Shown here: positions 21,519 to 29,391 of the stretch, one piece after another
How positions within the stretch are numbered: position 1 is the stretch's first letter
How the letters are laid out: the number at the start of each line of letters is the position of its first letter
Origin: a bacterium
GTDB taxonomy: Bacteria > J088 > JAWLBW01
DNA: 64,000 nucleotides
Reading direction: 5' to 3'
Assembly (NCBI GenBank): GCA_041690355.1
Contig: JAWLHK010000002.1
Span: 186,001-250,000, forward strand
Notes under the pieces: model-generated
The model's database searches: none
What the model was told of the DNA's origin: nothing
Seen by the model: the letters and a program-made list of their open reading frames with translations, nothing else
Program-made: the position numbers and the translations under genes

Positions 21519-23393
21519 TCAGGCGCGCGCCTTGCCTTCGGGGGCGCAGGCGAGAAGGGCCCAGGCGGTGGTAAGCACCGGGTGCCCCCAACAGGCCGGG
21601 AGGTAGTCCCGGTCGATGGAGACGAAAGCCGCTTCGCCGGGCCAGCTGCCATCGATCGTCTGCCGATCGAGCAGCCAGGCGGCAATCCGCTGACCGTCGA
21701 CAGGGAGCGACCAGCAGCGCGCCGCGAGGACGGCCGCTATGGTCTCGAGCACGCCGCCATAGCTGCCGTCGAGCCGTTCTTCGGCACGCAGTTCTGCTTC
21801 GAGCGTCTGGCAGACACTTTGGGCCGACGCCTCGTCGATGAATCCGTGACGCCGTGCCTGCGCGAGCACGCGATGCACGAACCAGCGCGTGAGCGGCGCG
21901 ACGTAGAAGGGGCCCTCGAATTCGCCGCGCTCGGCAACGCCGCACAGCCGTTTCCAGGCGCCGGGCGGAATGCGCTCGGCCTGGCCCTGCTCGAGCAGGC
22001 CCCAGATCGCATTGGCGGCGGTTCCGGGACAATCGTTCCCCTGCCAGACGATACCCTCGGGAGAGGGGCCCATCCAGGTGCGTACCCCCTCGTCGACAAG
22101 ATTGTCGAGCAGGAGAGCAGTGTCGGCTGCGCGGATTTCAGCCGCAAGCCGCGCCCCGAAGTAGCCGAGCACCAGTCCGGTATCGTCGGCGTCGGGAGGG
22201 ATGGTACGCTCGTGCGGGTAGTACCGCCAGCCATCGGGGTCGCGCAGGCGCTGCAGCTTCTCCCATTCGTCGTGTGCCGGGCGCCCCCACGCCTGCAATG
22301 CGGCGAGCCTGAAGATGGCCGGATACAGATCGGCGCGGACCCGCGGCTTCCCGAACAGCCCCCACCGGTGAACCTCGGCGGCCCCGGTCGCCTCCTCGAG
22401 ATACGCGAGGGCGCGCTCGACGCCATTCTCCGGGGTCAGGGCGGGAAGTGCGCGGGGACGGTCAAGCATACCGAGTGTCTCGCGTATCGTGGCCGCCGTA
22501 GCCAGAAACCAGGCGACGGCGGGTTCGAACCCCGAGGCCTCGGTAACGTCATCGATGAGCCGTGCCCAGGCCTCGCGCACGGAGAATTCTGCGTCCTGCA
22601 GGGCGATCATGGCCGATGCCGCCGCCTGAAAGCGCATCTCTGCCTGCACGTCGGGGCGCGAACGCAATCGGGAAGCGAGCAGCCTGAAGGGGCGCTTTCC
22701 GTATAGGGGAGCGAGAACGCGCGTCCACTTGCCCGCGATGAAGTCGCCCGAGCGCGGCTTCAGGTAAACGTCGAACACGTCGCTCAGGTCCTGGAGGGCG
22801 GCGCCGAAGCGCAGCCCGAATGCCTCGAACGGTCTGGTCGGACGGTCTGCCGCACGGGCGGCGACGGCGAAGAACAGCGCGAATTCGGCCCCGGCCTTGT
22901 CGAGGTGGATGGCGTCGGTGTCCGGCACCCGGGGACGATCGGTGGCGTCGAGGTCGCGGTTCTGGCCGCCGGCCATGATGAGGCCGAAGTGCAGGGCCGC
23001 CTCCAGGATCTCCGGGGTGATCGCGGCGGCTGCACGGTGGGCGAGCATGAGCAGGGCGCAAGCGTCGTTGGCGCGCGCGCCGGGCGCGTCGCCGTCGTCG
23101 ATGTCGTCGGCGACGTCGGCCGCGGCCCAGAGCAGGGTGCAGAAGATCCCGGCGGCATCGACCCGTTCCTGGGAAGCGCCCAGCGAGCGGGCCATGCGCA
23201 CCGCGAAGAGCGCGGGCGAGCCTCCGGTATGCCCGGGGGGCGTGAGAACGCGCTTTCGAAGTCGCGCGAGGAGCCCGGCCTCGACGGGGGCGCGTTGCAG
23301 ATGGGTCTCGACGGCGCTGTTCAACATGGACAGCAGCCCGGCTTCTTCGGTAAGCCAGCGTTCTTCATCATGAGCCGTCGTATGCATGTTCAT
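21519..23393 (-). CDS. Bifunctional ComQ-like (isoprenoid-synthase fold) prenyltransferase fused to a class II terpene cyclase beta-domain
   Basis: N-half: ADVADDIDDGD with no downstream RRG, GQNRDL, KAG, degenerate second motif LQDLSDVFD, SGDFIAGKWT. C-half: PPDADDTG (DXDD) and QW-like RDPDGW, RLDGSY, QTIDGSW. Alternative start 23387. Confidence 0.75.
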   Translation of the reverse strand: MNMHTTAHDEERWLTEEAGLLSMLNSAVETHLQRAPVEAGLLARLRKRVLTPPGHTGGSPALFAVRMARSLGASQERVDAAGIFCTLLWAAADVADDIDDGDAPGARANDACALLMLAHRAAAAITPEILEAALHFGLIMAGGQNRDLDATDRPRVPDTDAIHLDKAGAEFALFFAVAARAADRPTRPFEAFGLRFGAALQDLSDVFDVYLKPRSGDFIAGKWTRVLAPLYGKRPFRLLASRLRSRPDVQAEMRFQAAASAMIALQDAEFSVREAWARLIDDVTEASGFEPAVAWFLATAATIRETLGMLDRPRALPALTPENGVERALAYLEEATGAAEVHRWGLFGKPRVRADLYPAIFRLAALQAWGRPAHDEWEKLQRLRDPDGWRYYPHERTIPPDADDTGLVLGYFGARLAAEIRAADTALLLDNLVDEGVRTWMGPSPEGIVWQGNDCPGTAANAIWGLLEQGQAERIPPGAWKRLCGVAERGEFEGPFYVAPLTRWFVHRVLAQARRHGFIDEASAQSVCQTLEAELRAEERLDGSYGGVLETIAAVLAARCWSLPVDGQRIAAWLLDRQTIDGSWPGEAAFVSIDRDYLPACWGHPVLTTAWALLACAPEGKARA

Positions 23394-23407: not shown

Positions 23408-25477
23408 TCAGTGAAGCGAGCGACCGTGAGCATCCGACCGGGATGCCACGGCGTGCAGCTGCCGGCGCAGCTCTTCGAGCGCAATCGGCTTCTGCAGGAC
23501 ACGCACGCCGGGCGGGAGGTCGGCCAGTTCAGCCGTCCCCGGGGGGAGCGCGGTCAGAAACAGGAACCGCTCGCGCAGCGCATCCGGCGCGGCGCGTAAG
23601 AGTTCGGGGCCGGTGCCGTCACCGAGACGGATGTCGCAGAGTACGGCCGAAAACGGCTGTTTCAGATATGGGAGCGCCTCGTGAACCGAAGCGGCGGTCG
23701 TGACGGCGAAATCGCGCAGGACGTTGCGGAACAGGGTGAGGGTCCGCACCTCGTCGTCGACGATGAGAATCGGTCGCCGTTCCCGGGTTTCGATGTTCCC
23801 GGCCAGCGGCAGAGAAAGCGTGAAGGTGCTCCCCTCGTTTTCTTTCGAGTAGACCCGCAGCTGCCCGCCGTGTTCGGTGGCGATGTGGTAGCTCACGCTG
23901 AGCCCCAGGCCGGTACCGCTGCCGGGCGACTTCGTGGTGAAGAAGGGGTCGAAAATGCGCCGAAGCCGGTCGGCGGGAATTCCCGCGCCATTGTCCTCGA
24001 CCGAGAGCGTGCCGCTGATCTCGTCGGAGACCACGCGCACGATGATCCGATTCTCGTCGCGCGGACGCTCGGGAAGGGCCTGCCGCGCATTGATGAGCAG
24101 GTTGAGCAGCACCTGCACGATTTCGTCGGGTCGGCAGGAGACCATGACCGGTCGATCGGGAACTTCGACCTGCAGCTGGGTCAGGTGATGAAAATCCGCG
24201 GCGACGAGACGGTGTACGCGCTGTACGAGCTCGACGAGATCGACGGCCTCGAAAGTCCTTGACGGGGTCGGATGCGAAAGCCGCTTCAGCCCCTGGACGA
24301 TGCTGGCCACCTGGGCAAACCCGCTCTGAATGTCTTCGAGCGGCGACCGGTAGCTTTCTGGCAGGTCTTCGCGGGAAAGCAGATATTCGAGGTTGCCGGA
24401 GATGTACGTGAGCGGATTATTGATCTCGTGTGCGACCCCGGCAGACAGCGTACCCATGGCAACCATGCGATCGGCGAGCGCAAAGTGTTCCTGTAGCTCG
24501 CGGTTCTTGCGTTCGAACTCGACGCGATCCGTGGCGTCCTGGGCGAGAACGGCAAAGCGCCGCTCCTGATCGCGCAGGGGGAGCGGGACGATGCGGATGT
24601 CGAGGTATCGCTCCGACTCGGTGGCCGGCTGTCCATAAATGGAGGCGGGAACTCCGGTGGCCTCGATGCGTCGCAGCACCTCGTAAAGGTCGGCGATTTC
24701 GAGCGAGCCATCCTGGCGCCGCAGACCGGGGGCCTGCCCCGACTCCCGGTAGGTCAGGCAGAGGCCGTTGCGATCCATGACGTACAGGGCCGCCGTGGCC
24801 TGCTCGAGGGTCGACAGCCAGTCTTTTTCGACGTCGCGCAGACGCCGCTCGGCATCCAGATTCACGCGTGTAAGGTTGAGCTCGTGCTCCGACTTCATCG
24901 CGAGCTCCAGAAGTCCGATCTGCTTGACCCGTTCCGAGCCGAAGAATCCGGCCAGAACGACCGACAGCCCCGCGAGCGACCAGAGCATCGGTCGTTCACC
25001 GGCCACGGGCAGCTCGCTGTGGTATGCGAACGCGACCACGACCAGAATCGGGGCCGCGACCCCCGCCAGGACGCTCGGGTGGTTTCCCGCGCTCTGGGCC
25101 AGAAGAACGGCCATGAGGATGTAGAACGCCCCGAGATAGGTATGCCCGCCAGACGCGAGGGCAACCTCGATACACAGGCCGGCAAGGAAAATCTCGCTTT
25201 CGAGCCAGTTTGCGGCGCTGTAGGCCAGAGAGTCGAATCCATAGTGATCATATATCCATCGTGTGGTCGCCATGGCGATCGCGAAGACGCCGAACACAAA
25301 CAGGGTCGGTTCAGCGGGAAGCGGCAACCATCCGATTACCGCCAGCCCGGCCACGATGGCCAGGACGGCCACCCCCTGAAAGAAGAACGTTCGGCTTCTT
25401 CCGTGGGCGTGATAGGCCGGGTCGAGCGCCGGGGGGATGATTCTCGCGAGCTTCTTCGCAAAAGAGCCAGGATTCAT
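23408..25477 (-). CDS. Hybrid sensor histidine kinase (about 6 TM, PAS-like, HisKA, HATPase, REC)
   Basis: Hydrophobic N-terminal ~180 aa, [32 protein letters not shown]-terminal ILIVDDE...LCD...QKP. Confidence 0.92.
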
Positions 25478-25659
25478 TGAAATTCCCGCAGGGGTGCACA
25501 GACAAGAATTGTTACAGAAATCGACGAAAAGCGGGCCGAATGTTACGAACTGTAACGTAACGGCCAGCCGTCGTCACATTGCGGGAAGCTTTGCGGCGGG
25601 CCGACTAGCATGCGTTGGCAACCGGACATGATGTTCGGGGTTCTCTGAGGAGAGTTGCC

Positions 25660-25749
25660 ATGACGCTCAAGAAACTTGCCGCCGCCATTCTTGCCTCGAC
25701 CACCAACGCCCCCACCGCGCCGAACGATACCATCGCCTACTATCCCTGA
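25660..25749 (+). CDS. 29-aa peptide MTLKKLAAAILASTTNAPTAPNDTIAYYP, putative signal/RiPP precursor
   Basis: Below the ORF-track length cutoff. GAGGAG (25647-25652) 7 nt before ATG, almost all codons end in C/G, terminator follows the stop. Confidence 0.7.
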   Translation: MTLKKLAAAILASTTNAPTAPNDTIAYYP

Positions 25750-25757
25750 ACCAGACG

Positions 25758-25798
25758 GGGCCCGTCTGCCGCGACAAGGGCGACGGGCCCTGCTTTTT
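25758..25798 (+). terminator. Intrinsic terminator after the peptide gene
   Basis: GGGCCCGTC...GACGGGCCC stem followed by TGCTTTTT. Confidence 0.6.
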
Positions 25799-25860
25799 CG
25801 TCGGTTGACCCCGCCGGCGCAGTGCCTTTCGCGGTAATTCTCCGCCTTACCCCATTGGGC

Positions 25861-25889
25861 TTGCCAACGTTGCAACAGCTGACTATGCT
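25861..25889 (+). promoter_or_regulatory. sigma70-type promoter of the OmpR-family gene (leaderless geometry)
   Basis: TTGCCA-N17-TATGCT, 6 nt before the GTG at 25896. Confidence 0.6.
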
Positions 25890-25895
25890 AATGCC

Positions 25896-26615
25896 GTGCA
25901 GCGTTTTTACCCGGCCGGGGATCTCGGGCGACTCCTTCTCGTAGAGGATGATCCGCGAATCGTGCGGATGCTCGCTCGCTACTTCGGCGAGCGGGGCGTG
26001 CAGGTGCACGCGACCGACGACCCGGTCACCGTTTGCGCCTCCATCGAGGAGGCGCGGCCCGACCTCATCCTGCTCGACTGGGTGATGCCTGAGCGCAGCG
26101 GCCTCGACGTGCTCCGCGAGATCCGCCGCCATGCCCGCTTCGTCGATATTCCCGTCATCATGCTGACGGCCCGCGCCGAAGAACTCGACCGGGTCGAGGG
26201 CCTGCTTACCGGCGCCGACGACTATGTCGTCAAACCCTTCAGCCTGGCCGAACTCGACGCGCGCATCGTCAGCGTCATGCGCCGGTATCGCCGCCGCGCT
26301 CTCCCGTACCGGGATGAGTATCTCGAAATCGATGTCGACCGCAAACGGCTCGTGTCGGGCGGGACACCGCGTACCCTGAGCGCTCAGGAGTGGGGTCTGC
26401 TCGAACTCCTCCTGCGCAGCGACGGCGTGGTTACCCGGCAGCAGATCGTCGATACGGTCTGGGGGCCGGGATTCGCCGTCACGCCGCGGGCGGTCGACGT
26501 CATGGTGGCCCGGCTGCGCCGCGCCATGGAGCCCGAGCCCGAATTCCCCCGCTATCTGCTGACCGAGCGCGGCACGGGGTACCGCTTCTGCCGCCGGCGC
26601 GATCGGCTGGACTGA
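25896..26615 (+). CDS. OmpR/PhoB-family DNA-binding response regulator
   Basis: LLVEDD...LLDWVMP...MLTAR...GADDYVVKPF; wHTH RAVDVMVARLRR...TERGTGY. Confidence 0.92.
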   Translation: MQRFYPAGDLGRLLLVEDDPRIVRMLARYFGERGVQVHATDDPVTVCASIEEARPDLILLDWVMPERSGLDVLREIRRHARFVDIPVIMLTARAEELDRVEGLLTGADDYVVKPFSLAELDARIVSVMRRYRRRALPYRDEYLEIDVDRKRLVSGGTPRTLSAQEWGLLELLLRSDGVVTRQQIVDTVWGPGFAVTPRAVDVMVARLRRAMEPEPEFPRYLLTERGTGYRFCRRRDRLD

Positions 26616-26642
26616 ATGCGCGCCACCCGCTAGACTCTGGGC

Positions 26643-27965
26643 ATGATGCGCCTGTCCGGATGCCTTCTGTCCGCCTGCCTCCTCCTCTCCTGCAGTTCGC
26701 CCGTTCCGCCTCCGGCAGACCGGGAGAACGACGTGAAGCCGGTTTCCGTGGCCGAACGTCTCGCGGCCCGTTACGGCATCGAACCGCTCGATTATGCCCG
26801 CGAAGAGTACTGGGGGTGCGGGATCACGCCCGGCGCAGACGCCTGCGCGCTCGACGCACAGGTGGCACGGCTCGTGACCGACGGCACGGTGCGCCTGACC
26901 GCGTTGCCGACCCTCGAGCAACCGCCGGTCGACTGTTTCTACATCTACCCCACGGTCGCGCCCGATCCGTCCGTCGACGAACACGGCGCCTTTCGCAGCG
27001 TCGAGCAGCCGCGGCTTGTCATGCAGCTGCAGGCGGCCTGGTTCGGACGCGTCTGCCGCGTGTTCGCCCCCTTTTACCGGCAGGCGACGATCGATCGCTA
27101 CCTGAAGCACGATGAGGAGTCGAAGGAGATCTTCCGCACTGCCTTTGTGGATGTGGCGGCCGCCTTCGAACACTTTCTGGCCGCGTGGAACGGGAACCGG
27201 CCGCTCGTGATCCTGGGGCACAGCCAGGGGGCGCAGATGGCCTCCTATCTGCTGCATCTCTACTTCGACGGCGCCACCACGGTCACGCGCGTCGCGGGGA
27301 GCCATACGAGCGACGCCCTGCGCCGCCGGCTTCTCGTGGCCATGCCCATCGGGTTTCACGTCTTCGTACCCGCGGGAGAACCGGTCGGCGGCTCCTTCTC
27401 GCACCTGCCGCTGTGCGAGCAGGATGCCGATCGGGGGTGCGTCATCAGCTACCGGAGCTATGCCGATGGCGAGCCCTACCATACGGCCTGGGCGACCGGA
27501 TGGATCGATGAGCAGCTGGCCGCCGAAGGGCTCCTCTACCGGACCTACGAGAAACAGTCCGATCGCCTCGCGTGCGTCAATCCTGCGCGACTCGCCCTCG
27601 ACGCTGCGAACGGGGCATTGGCGCTGGACACCGAGGGAAATGCGGCGCCCGCGGGGGCCCGTGTGCTGGATGGATCGATGATTCCCGAAGCGATGAGCAA
27701 CGTCGCCGGCCGGTTTCCCGAGGCCAAGGGGTTCTGGCTCGAGACGCCCGGCCGTTACACCGCCGCCTGCCGCGAAGACGAGAACGGAGAGCAGTATCTC
27801 GGCATCGGGTTCCACCAGCCGGCCACGACCGCCTGGCCCGGCGGAGACCTGCGGGGCGACCCGCTGGCCGCCGGGCTGCCGACCTCTGCGCTGGGTCTGC
27901 ACCTCATCGATTTCAATCACGCCCTCGGCGACCTGATCGATCACGTGCGCGTTCGGATCCCCTGA
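26643..27965 (+). CDS. DUF3089-type alpha/beta-hydrolase lipoprotein
   Basis: Lipobox LLSC, DCFYIYPT, VFAPFYRQA, nucleophile elbow GHSQG, C-terminal LH..D. Confidence 0.8.
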   Translation: MMRLSGCLLSACLLLSCSSPVPPPADRENDVKPVSVAERLAARYGIEPLDYAREEYWGCGITPGADACALDAQVARLVTDGTVRLTALPTLEQPPVDCFYIYPTVAPDPSVDEHGAFRSVEQPRLVMQLQAAWFGRVCRVFAPFYRQATIDRYLKHDEESKEIFRTAFVDVAAAFEHFLAAWNGNRPLVILGHSQGAQMASYLLHLYFDGATTVTRVAGSHTSDALRRRLLVAMPIGFHVFVPAGEPVGGSFSHLPLCEQDADRGCVISYRSYADGEPYHTAWATGWIDEQLAAEGLLYRTYEKQSDRLACVNPARLALDAANGALALDTEGNAAPAGARVLDGSMIPEAMSNVAGRFPEAKGFWLETPGRYTAACREDENGEQYLGIGFHQPATTAWPGGDLRGDPLAAGLPTSALGLHLIDFNHALGDLIDHVRVRIP

Positions 27966-28026
27966 GCCCCCGCTCCGGCGCCTCCCGCTCTCGGCGCCGC
28001 GTCTGCTCGGGTTTAGCATGGGACGC

Positions 28027-29391
28027 ATGTACTTTCGCGATCGCACGGATGCTGGAAAACAGCTGGCGGCGGCCCTTCTGCGTCTGCGTCCCGAGCGTCC
28101 GGTGGTGCTCGCGCTCCCGCGCGGCGGCGTGCCGGTCGCCTATGAGGTCGCCGCGGCGCTGGACGCTCCACTGGACGTGCTCGTCGCCCGGAAACTCGGG
28201 GCGCCCAGCCAGCCCGAGTTCGGCTTCGGCGCCATCGCCCCCGACGCACTCTATCTCGACCCGCACACGGTGCGGATGCTGCGGCTGGGCGACGCCGAGA
28301 TCGAGGAAATCGTCGGCCGTGAGAGCCGCGAGCTCGAGCGGCGCGAACGGGCCTACCGCAACGGACGCCCGCCGGCCGATGTCTCCGGCCGCACGGTCAT
28401 TCTCGTGGATGACGGACTGGCGACCGGCGTCACCATGCGCGCGGCCATACGCTCGGTCAAGGCGCGCAACCCCGGCCGCATCGTCGTGGCCGTGCCCGTG
28501 GGGGCGCCCGAAACCGTGCAGGAGATCGAGCTCGAAGTGAGCGAGATCATCTGTCTCAATCAGCCTTGGGATTTCTCGGCCGTCGGCGTCTGGTACGAAG
28601 ACTTCCGCCAGACGGAAGATCAGGAGGTCATCGAGCTGCTTGAGAAGGCGCCCCGCGGACAGCCGCAGCCGCCTGCGCAGGGGGCAGGGGGAATCGCCGG
28701 CTACGATGTAACGATACCGGCGGGCGGCCATGTCATTCTTCCGGGCAACCTGCACGTGCCGGCCGCGGCGGTCGGCGTCGTGGCCTTCGCGCACGGCAGC
28801 GGCAGCAGCCGGTTCAGCACACGCAACCGGTATGTCGCCCGCGTGCTGCAGGACGCGGGCGTCGCGACGCTGCTCTTCGACCTGCTTACCGCCGAAGAAG
28901 AAGAGGAAGATCGCTACACGGCCCACCTGCGCTTCGATATTGATTTGCTCTCCGAACGGCTCCTTGCCGCCGTGAACTGGCTCGATCAGGATGTGCGCAC
29001 GTCGGGCCTGCCCGTCGGCCTTTTCGGTGCCAGCACCGGCGGGGCGGCGGCCATCCGGGCGGCGGCCGAAGACGAGCGGGTCAAAGCCGTGGTCTCCCGC
29101 GGGGGCAGGCCTGATCTGGCGGGGAATGCGCTCGAACGCATTCTGGCGCCCACGCTGCTGCTGGTCGGCGAGAACGATCCGGTCGTCCTCGAACTGAACG
29201 AGGCGGCCTTTGCGACGATGCGCGCGCACAAGCGGCTCACGCTCATCCCGCGCGCGACCCACCTCTTTGAAGAGCCCGGAACCCTCGAGCAGGCAGCCGC
29301 CGCCGCGCGTGACTGGTTCGTGCGCCACCTCGAAGCCCCTTCGCCCGAAGTCCGTCCCGGCCGCGCGCCGGGCCGCGAAGCCCGCGAGTAG
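28027..29391 (+). CDS. Phosphoribosyltransferase-like domain fused to a dienelactone-hydrolase-like domain
   Basis: FRDRTDAG, LPRGGVPVA, VDDGLATG; FAHGSGSSRFS.RN, FGASTG, VSRGGRPDL, ATHLFEEPG. Confidence 0.88.
   Translation: MYFRDRTDAGKQLAAALLRLRPERPVVLALPRGGVPVAYEVAAALDAPLDVLVARKLGAPSQPEFGFGAIAPDALYLDPHTVRMLRLGDAEIEEIVGRESRELERRERAYRNGRPPADVSGRTVILVDDGLATGVTMRAAIRSVKARNPGRIVVAVPVGAPETVQEIELEVSEIICLNQPWDFSAVGVWYEDFRQTEDQEVIELLEKAPRGQPQPPAQGAGGIAGYDVTIPAGGHVILPGNLHVPAAAVGVVAFAHGSGSSRFSTRNRYVARVLQDAGVATLLFDLLTAEEEEEDRYTAHLRFDIDLLSERLLAAVNWLDQDVRTSGLPVGLFGASTGGAAAIRAAAEDERVKAVVSRGGRPDLAGNALERILAPTLLLVGENDPVVLELNEAAFATMRAHKRLTLIPRATHLFEEPGTLEQAAAAARDWFVRHLEAPSPEVRPGRAPGREARE

Follow-up and report, generated by a model that had tools for sequence, protein, structure and literature searches.

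A 29-codon gene beside a two-component system and a prenyltransferase-terpene cyclase fusion: a probable precursor of a lipid-decorated signalling peptide

What is the function of a 29-codon open reading frame (ORF) in the 418-nt spacer between the genes of a sensor kinase and a response regulator? The ORF lies in a 64,000-nt stretch of bacterial DNA, the window in which all coordinates are given. The window comes from a genome of 4.64 Mb and 65.6% GC that belongs to a very small separate phylum (G000, the genome under study). Locus DNA was examined at two loci, this one and its counterpart in the sole same-family genome among the 41 searched (G001). The arrangement is best explained as a cassette of the peptide, an OmpR-type regulator, a six-helix membrane kinase and a fused prenyltransferase-terpene cyclase. 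The peptide is a probable precursor of a lipid-decorated signalling peptide that has Tyr where its known relatives carry Trp. The features of the locus are collected in Table 1.

Genes were called provisionally by a home-made procedure across the whole of G000, which makes the base rates approximate, and short ORFs were listed across the 838 kb of DNA left unoccupied. The ORF encodes MTLKKLAAAILASTTNAPTAPNDTIAYYP, which ends in IAYYP. The original prediction, made from the letters of the window, had read a GAGGAG-N7-ATG start, host-like C or G in third codon positions and a stop codon followed by a GC-rich hairpin and a T-run, as in a one-gene unit; the start signal was found exactly as described, and the other two readings also held. 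A Shine-Dalgarno (SD) sequence of at least 4 nt was found 3-12 nt ahead of only ~30% of the 3,318 provisional starts, a rough figure that takes the longest ORFs as starts. This low share agrees with a genome in which many genes are leaderless or lack an SD. GC content by codon position is 0.48/0.55/0.79 in the peptide ORF, and its third-position value compares with 0.84 in the regulator gene and 0.78 in the kinase gene. The 61 nt from position 25740 fold with -33.2 kcal/mol (z = -4.5), a stability reached by 0 of 200 shuffles, and the hairpin begins 4 nt past the stop codon and runs into five T. A simple terminator scan of the window region found 1 match against 1.0 expected, which is not significant, so the case for a terminator rests on the folding z-score. 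These results support a monocistronic gene.

Table 1. Coordinates of the peptide gene, its expression signals and the neighbouring cassette genes in the 64,000-nt window.
Feature	Position	Strand	Details
Peptide gene	25660..25749	+	ATG at 25660, 29 codons, TGA at 25747-25749
Shine-Dalgarno sequence GAGGAG	25647..25652	+	7 nt ahead of the peptide ATG
Intrinsic terminator, GC-rich hairpin and T5 (25794-25798)	25753..25798	+	Predicted by RNA folding; closes the one-gene unit
Regulatory stretch of the divergent spacer, candidate regulator binding site	25503..25562		13-mer CAAGAATTGTTAC and four GTAAC/GTTAC boxes
Promoter-like TTGCCA-17-TATGCT	25861..25889	+	9/12 matches, 0.1 expected in shuffles
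Prenyltransferase-cyclase fusion (P0003), 624 aa	21519..23393	-	Follows the kinase gene after 14 nt
Hybrid sensor histidine kinase, gene pointing away from the peptide gene	23408..25477	-	HisKA, HATPase_c, partial receiver domain
OmpR/PhoB-type response regulator	25896..26615	+	Receiver domain and Trans_reg_C

The combination of signals is rare in the genome. Ranked by codon log-odds per codon among the 19,297 small-ORF candidates of the unoccupied G000 DNA, the peptide ORF reaches the 98.6th percentile. Only 5 ORFs of 15-60 codons there have an ATG start, an SD of 5 nt or longer, log-odds of 0.3 or higher and a terminator together, and the other ORFs among these five resemble genuine small genes. 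With the codon filter off, the combination of ATG, 5-nt SD and terminator occurs in 4 ORFs of 20-40 codons per 837,861 nt. The peptide ORF is the sole SD-led plus-strand ORF of its spacer; an antisense frame at 25605-25688 in the same spacer likewise has an upstream GAGG. The exact 29-residue peptide is present in a public protein collection with NCBI as its source, which means that some annotation pipeline had called the gene and corrects the earlier view that the ORF is too short for most annotators. Neither Pfam nor NCBIfam holds a family for the peptide, and no Pfam match appeared even at E values up to 10. A search for a paralog among the 19,297 small ORFs of G000 found none, Rfam returned no family in 24000-27500 at E values up to 1, and inspection by eye gave no convincing sigma-54 or sigma-70 promoter match for the peptide gene.

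The strongest evidence that the peptide gene is real is its positional match in G001. Between the orthologous kinase and regulator genes of that genome lies a 28-codon ORF, MKPSELKKIVKVSTVRKTMAGTKLYSTP, with GGAGG 5 nt ahead of its ATG and with the same CCC-TGA ending as the ORF of G000. It is the only SD-led ORF in its spacer. Its terminator folds with -23.1 kcal/mol (z = -3.85) and is followed by seven T; the stem begins 28 nt past the stop codon. An ORF with ATG, SD and terminator is expected by chance in ~0.002 of 400-nt spacers, yet one stands at the same place in both genomes. Conservation beside an enzyme ortholog had been put forward as a check on the original prediction, and the G001 locus supplied it in the form of a short ORF with the same type of SD, a terminator and a Tyr close to the C-terminus. 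The shared Pro-TGA ending is weak evidence because both elements are common among the provisional gene calls of G000 (C-terminal Pro in 9%, TGA in 67%). We conclude with high confidence that the 29-codon ORF is a real translated gene, and its origin by chance is very unlikely.

The peptide consists of a predicted docking helix (residues 2-16), a Pro/Thr/Ala linker and the C-terminal IAYYP. It has no Trp, and its only aromatic residues are Tyr27 and Tyr28, which are read directly from the sequence, as is the C-terminal YYP noted earlier. The G001 peptide has a single Tyr three residues ahead of its terminal Pro. Tyr is thus the only aromatic residue type in both peptides and stands 1-3 residues ahead of the terminal Pro in each. 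In an ungapped alignment the two share M1, L6, S13, T14 and A20, and I10 faces V10. The N-terminus had been called amphipathic and leader-like. The first term does not hold, as the helical hydrophobic moment of the G000 N-terminus was reached by 61% of 2,000 shuffles, and the second agrees with the complex model described below, in which the N-terminal part docks as a leader would sit. A secreted peptide with a Sec signal was also considered and rejected: the hydrophobic stretch of the G000 peptide is short, with a maximum 19-residue hydropathy of 0.54, and the G001 peptide is hydrophilic with a charge of +6.

Pfam gave no hit for the 624-residue enzyme at the usual threshold. With loose thresholds, polyprenyl_synt matched residues 109-214 (E = 0.0099) and SQHop_cyclase_C matched residues 568-621 (E = 0.029), and a loose NCBIfam match fell on a polyprenyl-transferase model (E = 0.0028). 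The PF00348 score was 15.6 bits (cut-off 27) for the G000 enzyme and 34.2 bits for its G001 ortholog. A whole-library HMMER search collected 125 family representatives at E ≤0.001, 49 of them at ≤1e-10, and many representatives are 610-690 residues long and aligned end to end. Thirty-two family rows formed the alignment for the AlphaFold model and for the motif columns given below. The model had a predicted local distance difference test score (pLDDT) of 94.4 and a predicted template modelling (TM) score (pTM) of 0.91. In Foldseek searches its N-terminal half resembled trans-prenyl diphosphate synthases, with Escherichia coli octaprenyl diphosphate synthase (3wjk_B) at a target-normalised TM of 0.76. 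The C-terminal half resembled the single-domain class II terpene cyclases 8pak, 8paj and MstE (6sbb) at target-normalised TM values of 0.60-0.61, and also drimenyl diphosphate synthase. A profile search against the PDB sequences agreed for both halves. On its predicted structure the enzyme is a domain of the ComQ superfamily, similar to trans-isoprenyl diphosphate synthases (hereafter trans-IDS), joined to a single-barrel class II terpene cyclase. The neighbouring prenyltransferase of the original prediction is therefore of the ComQ superfamily in its first domain, and the whole protein, with its two domains, is a prenyltransferase-cyclase like ChrPC in kind; this had gone unrecognised.

The catalytic motifs agree with this assignment. 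The first Asp-rich motif (FARM) is D96-D97-x-x-D100, and all 32 family rows carry D-D-x-x-D. The second Asp-rich motif (SARM) is altered and reads Q201-x-x-S204-D205-x-x-D208. Its first position is Ser or Thr in 31 of the 32 rows, Gly in the other and never Asp, and the Gln three residues upstream of this position is invariant throughout (32/32). The cyclase motif is D401-A-D403-D404, with all three Asp invariant in a 10-row alignment and D-A-D-D in most rows of the family. At residue 206, which follows the S/T-D pair (~22776-22778, minus strand), the 11 close relatives without exception carry Val or Ile; of 21 distant family members, 16 carry Tyr or Phe at the corresponding place. This difference could mark a changed acceptor pocket and is offered as a lead only.

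The complex of peptide and enzyme was modelled, and the interface score ipSAE was 0.63 (runs 0.66, 0.63 and 0.63), and the best of three controls scored 0.01. Of 80 solved complexes 58 reach the ipSAE mark, as do 2 of 110 mismatched pairs, counts that are only a rough guide here because a custom alignment was used and the partner has fewer than 30 residues. The runs share at least 68% of their contacts, and the peptide pLDDT is at least 58. Residues 2-3, 6-7, 9-11 and 13-16 form the peptide side of the interface, and residues 10, 14, 210-211, 251-255 and 298-313 form the enzyme side. In the model the docking surface is the end of the transferase domain that adjoins D205 and D208 of the altered motif. 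Among the contact positions with the least predicted error, L6 and S13 are identical in the two peptides and I10 is replaced by V; T14, also in the interface, is identical too. No solved structure of such an enzyme in complex with its peptide is known to us, and it seems unlikely that the docking result reflects model memory. The modelling makes it rather likely that the peptide is a physical partner of the enzyme. The check proposed in the original prediction, that a complex model might show Tyr27 or Tyr28 in the active site, came out halfway: the peptide docks in the model, and neither Tyr is confidently placed.

The kinase has six hydrophobic segments within residues 35-180, joined by short loops, and no large external domain, a design that suits a membrane-borne ligand. 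The regulator gene lies 3' of the peptide terminator plus 99 nt. A public call of the regulator (P0133, 215 aa) starts 24 codons later than ours and would lose the first strand of the receiver domain. The G001 locus carries orthologs of the kinase, enzyme and regulator in the same arrangement. The kinase ortholog shares 35% identity across 378 aligned residues of the sensor half (E = 7e-61), the enzyme ortholog (P0005), directly downstream of the kinase gene, is 46% identical, and the regulator ortholog is 54-56% identical.

The spacer also contains putative regulatory elements. Its 13-mer is identical in the aligned G000 and G001 spacers. GTAAC/GTTAC boxes start at 25511, 25542, 25552 and 25557 in G000, 4 boxes in 182 nt compared to 0.10 expected from the genome density. 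The 168 nt of G001 also hold 4 boxes, within L003 1108-1215 and at spacings of 31-32-32 nt, and the interval from the first box to the second is 31 nt in either genome. These boxes are candidate binding sites of the cassette regulator. A promoter-like block ends 6 nt ahead of the GTG start of the regulator gene, where no SD is present (25861-25898), and 39 nt of this block align with G001 ungapped. The regulator therefore probably has its own transcript, which may possibly be leaderless.

The cassette has a narrow distribution. Forty-one genomes were searched, G000 and 40 others that included one of the same family (G001) and three of the same phylum. The three same-phylum genomes contain neither the enzyme nor the kinase sensor, and the peptide spacer matches nothing outside G000 among the 41. 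A second spacer match within G000 (L002) was dismissed as chance because it lies inside a coding region. The kinase sensor alignment found no relative in a metagenome scan, the sensor domain matched only itself in the protein collection, and a scan of genome contigs returned only the G001 contig. The regulator alignment matched 80 metagenomic loci, all at ≤45% identity and none encoding the enzyme. In a profile search of 401 genomes the full-length two-domain enzyme was found only in G000 and G001, and the remaining matches were to polyprenyl synthases of the housekeeping type or to cyclase domains standing alone. A tblastn search against plasmids gave no match.

Public protein data contain 9 relatives of the enzyme at 38-46% identity and 20 relatives of the regulator at 50-58% identity, after which regulator identity drops to ≤46%. 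Three regulator orthologs and enzyme homologs come from contigs of matching size (23,283 nt; 7,131 nt, P0006/P0142; and 37,594 nt, P0010/P0149), which indicates that the pairing of regulator and enzyme extends beyond G000 and G001. The nearest enzyme clusters in the ESM Atlas are proteins of 624 and 627 residues (scores 0.94 and 0.93), assigned most commonly to Saccharimonadota and Minisyncoccota. On the G001 contig (C30) a canonical polyprenyl synthase gene (L098 398-1339; PF00348, 197 bits) comes after the enzyme gene in the same orientation, and next to it is a gene for a UbiE-type methyltransferase (L098 1-396). G000 has neither gene at the locus, and its two canonical synthases are on contigs C31 and C5. 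The two G001 genes could supply the prenyl donor, or they could be genes of a quinone pathway.

We propose the following sequence of events. The N-terminal helix of the peptide (approximately residues 2-16) would dock on the prenyltransferase domain next to the altered SARM, as predicted by the complex model. The flexible Pro/Thr-rich tail would then present the aromatic side chain of Tyr27 or Tyr28 to the prenyl diphosphate bound there, and the cyclase domain would protonate and cyclise the attached isoprenoid. The lipidated peptide, whole or trimmed after release, would be sensed in the membrane by the kinase, which would pass the signal to the regulator and through it to the promoters with GTAAC boxes in the divergent spacer, and so might regulate its own cassette. 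Taken as a whole, the explanation that the peptide is matured and sensed as part of a four-gene cassette is evenly balanced between true and false in our judgement. The same even balance applies to the single claim that the peptide is a substrate of the enzyme, and that the product is the ligand of the kinase is doubtful. The most specific version holds that a Tyr acceptor replaces Trp in this clade, that the autoinducer is a peptide with a Tyr-linked cyclised terpenoid sensed by the six-helix kinase, and that the Val/Ile residue is part of a reshaped pocket; it is tentative and rather improbable. The signal precursor of the original prediction thus stands in part: the gene is real, the enzyme is of the appropriate type and the N-terminus docks in the model, and the signal role is read from the gene neighbourhood only.

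Several observations weigh against the proposal that the peptide is matured by the enzyme and sensed by the kinase. The chief objection is that neither peptide has a Trp, while all characterised enzymes of this type act on Trp according to the published account (PMC13290415). Peptide residues 17-29, including both Tyr, lack confident placement in the complex model. The calibration set for the interface score had no partner shorter than 30 residues, and the interface positions of the enzyme are not better conserved than the remaining N-domain (mean entropy of 2.28 versus 2.22 bits). The peptide charge is +1 in G000 versus +6 in G001, and neither hydrophobic moment is significant. The similarity of the two peptides is not significant either (global p = 0.21, local p = 0.28 in 5,000 shuffles), so that their homology rests on position and not on sequence. 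The peptide and enzyme genes are on opposite strands with the 2-kb kinase gene between them. The cassette has no evident gene for a protease or an exporter.

The peptide could have a different role. It could bind the enzyme or the kinase unmodified, as a small regulatory subunit or feedback modulator comparable to small proteins known to tune sensor kinases, and the enzyme would make a free cyclic terpenoid that is sensed by the kinase. The absence of a Trp acceptor and the confident placement of the N-terminal helix only are in keeping with this arrangement; the C-domain resembles the small-molecule cyclases MstE and drimenyl diphosphate synthase, and a six-helix sensor is equally suited to a free lipid. 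A canonical polyprenyl synthase (PF00348, 197 bits) just downstream of the G001 enzyme gene points the same way, although the UbiE-type methyltransferase gene that follows it may mark it as a quinone-pathway gene. The enzyme itself argues for peptide maturation. Its second Asp motif is altered in 31 of 32 rows, which marks an acceptor other than isopentenyl diphosphate, and the published enzymes of this architecture are peptide maturases, both according to the part of the source available (PMC13290415). No known family of small modulators matches the peptide. We regard an unmodified partner as unlikely.

The remaining alternatives question whether the peptide sequence matters at all. The ORF might be a regulatory leader (an upstream ORF or an arrest peptide), or its transcript a small RNA; translation as far as the Pro-TGA end, or the RNA as such, would then control the terminator and the expression of neighbouring genes, with the encoded sequence irrelevant. 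The poor conservation of the peptide is expected in this case, while the SD, length, CCC-TGA ending and terminator are kept. A Pro codon ahead of the stop slows termination, and a ribosome paused at the G000 stop would cover the 5' arm of a hairpin that begins 4 nt away. This geometry is not conserved, because the distance from stop to stem is 28 nt in G001. The regulator gene has its own conserved promoter-like block ahead of its GTG. An attenuating leader calls for a stop codon or stall site that overlaps the terminator or antiterminator and for a downstream gene that lacks its own promoter; such an overlap is possible in G000 and not in G001, and the promoter-like block speaks against the second feature. 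The shared ending counts for little given the 9% of gene calls with C-terminal Pro and the 67% with TGA, Rfam has no match in 24000-27500 at E up to 1, and docking would be unexpected for a sequence-indifferent leader. This alternative is quite improbable. Less probable still is a chance ORF in a regulatory spacer with an unrelated, coincidental ORF in G001. Only two loci are at hand and their peptides have no significant similarity, which is in keeping with coincidence, yet such ORFs number 4 per 837,861 nt, or ~0.002 per 400-nt spacer, and one is present in both genomes. The codon log-odds at the 98.6th percentile and the complex score of 0.63 versus 0.01 for controls are also not expected of a random frame. 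A true ComX homolog in a member of the ComQXPA family is extremely improbable. The cast is similar, with an enzyme of the isoprenoid-synthase fold, a short, variable peptide with an aromatic residue close to its C-terminus, a multi-pass kinase and a regulator, and ComX is likewise hypervariable (PMC4008528); all five features that define ComQXPA in the available text of that source are nevertheless absent from the locus. We therefore retain the peptide as a probable precursor of a lipid-decorated signal.

The genes downstream of the regulator encode a DUF3089 protein, a phosphoribosyltransferase/dienelactone-hydrolase fusion and a member of the erythromycin-esterase family. The fusion protein (28018-29391) has 457 residues and combines the phosphoribosyltransferase with an alpha/beta hydrolase of the dienelactone-hydrolase type. 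The longest ORF of the erythromycin-esterase-family gene overlaps the fusion gene by 182 nt. Other small ORFs of G000 also have strong gene signals. Contig C8 (39698-39926, minus strand) carries tandem mini-genes of 25-28 residues whose SDs are strong and codon scores high; no relationship to the peptide was detected, and they are not among its best matches. Two Lys/Gly/Glu-rich ORFs of 44-55 residues on contigs C9 (125410-125577) and C37 (8139-8273, minus strand) lie in DNA left free by the provisional gene calls, have an SD, a good codon score and a terminator, and presumably resemble small stress-protein genes.

To our knowledge, peptides carrying cyclised terpenes were first described only in 2024. 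A natural partner peptide that bears Tyr and lacks Trp would point to a new acceptor chemistry of use for peptide lipidation. The fixed pairing of the enzyme with a two-component system suggests that its products are signals rather than antibiotics. If the Tyr acceptor and the sensing of the product are real, the cassette would be a ComX-like quorum-sensing circuit in an uncultured phylum with large, high-GC genomes. The diverged G000/G001 pair, together with ~20 metagenomic relatives, is material from which the rules of the peptide could be read. A literature search, with supplements and the primary report on ChrPC outside its scope, found no prenyltransferase-cyclase fusion coupled to a two-component system.

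The architecture of the enzyme can be compared to that of ChrPC, whose primary account is reportedly that of Hubrich et al. 2024, Chem 10:3224. The available portion of a 2026 review states that a trans-IDS-like P domain prenylates a peptide residue and that an MstE-like C domain cyclises the prenyl group; enzymes of the ChrPC type reuse the SARM for acceptor recognition and have a conserved upstream Gln (PMC13290415). The G000 enzyme likewise combines a trans-IDS-like prenyltransferase and an MstE-like single-domain class II cyclase in one polypeptide, keeps the first Asp-rich motif and has an altered second motif with the conserved upstream Gln. A short ribosomal peptide is encoded nearby in both cases, and here its docking is predicted by a model. 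This likeness is one of architecture and motifs and was drawn against the published description rather than the ChrPC sequence. The G000 system differs from ChrPC as described there. The ChrPC acceptor is an internal Trp, whereas the G000 peptide offers only Tyr27 and Tyr28, and the G000 enzyme gene is co-operonic with the kinase gene, with the peptide gene beside the response regulator, an organisation not mentioned in that portion. In the same portion of that source, all characterised trans-IDS-like peptide prenyltransferases target Trp, and replacement of the Trp abolished PalQ activity (PMC13290415).

The comparison to ComX made in the original prediction does not extend to family membership, since each of the five features of ComQXPA given in the available part of the survey (PMC4008528) fails. 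ComQXPA consists of four adjacent genes on the same strand, and in G000 the enzyme and kinase genes are on the minus strand and divergent from the peptide and regulator genes on the plus strand. ComQ is a single-domain PF00348 protein of 286-309 residues, unlike the 624-residue enzyme with its two domains and added cyclase. ComX is a hypervariable precursor of 52-73 residues (PF05952) with a Trp within the last 5-10 residues; the G000 peptide has 29 residues, no Trp and no Pfam match. ComP combines HisKA_3 (PF07730) with HATPase_c, and the G000 kinase has HisKA (PF00512), with PF07730 not among its domain matches. ComA pairs a receiver domain with a GerE-type helix-turn-helix (PF00196), unlike the OmpR-type Trans_reg_C of the G000 regulator (PMC4008528).

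The resemblance to ComQXPA and to the StheQ-StheX pair is one of outline. The ComQ homolog StheQ binds the adjacent peptide StheX tightly in vitro, and the evidence for this pair in the accessible part of the report consists of docking and size-exclusion binding only (10.64898/2026.08.29.745113). The G000 locus shares with these systems an enzyme of the isoprenyl diphosphate synthase fold with an intact FARM and a pseudo-SARM, a multi-pass kinase, a regulator and a short peptide of low conservation that has an aromatic residue towards its C-terminus. The C-terminal domain has the fold and the D-x-D-D motif of MstE, an enzyme whose prenyl chain is joined to an aromatic ring before it is cyclised. 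MstE is a stand-alone protein with a small aromatic acid as its substrate; the G000 cyclase shares one polypeptide with the transferase, and the aromatic ring proposed for it is part of a peptide.

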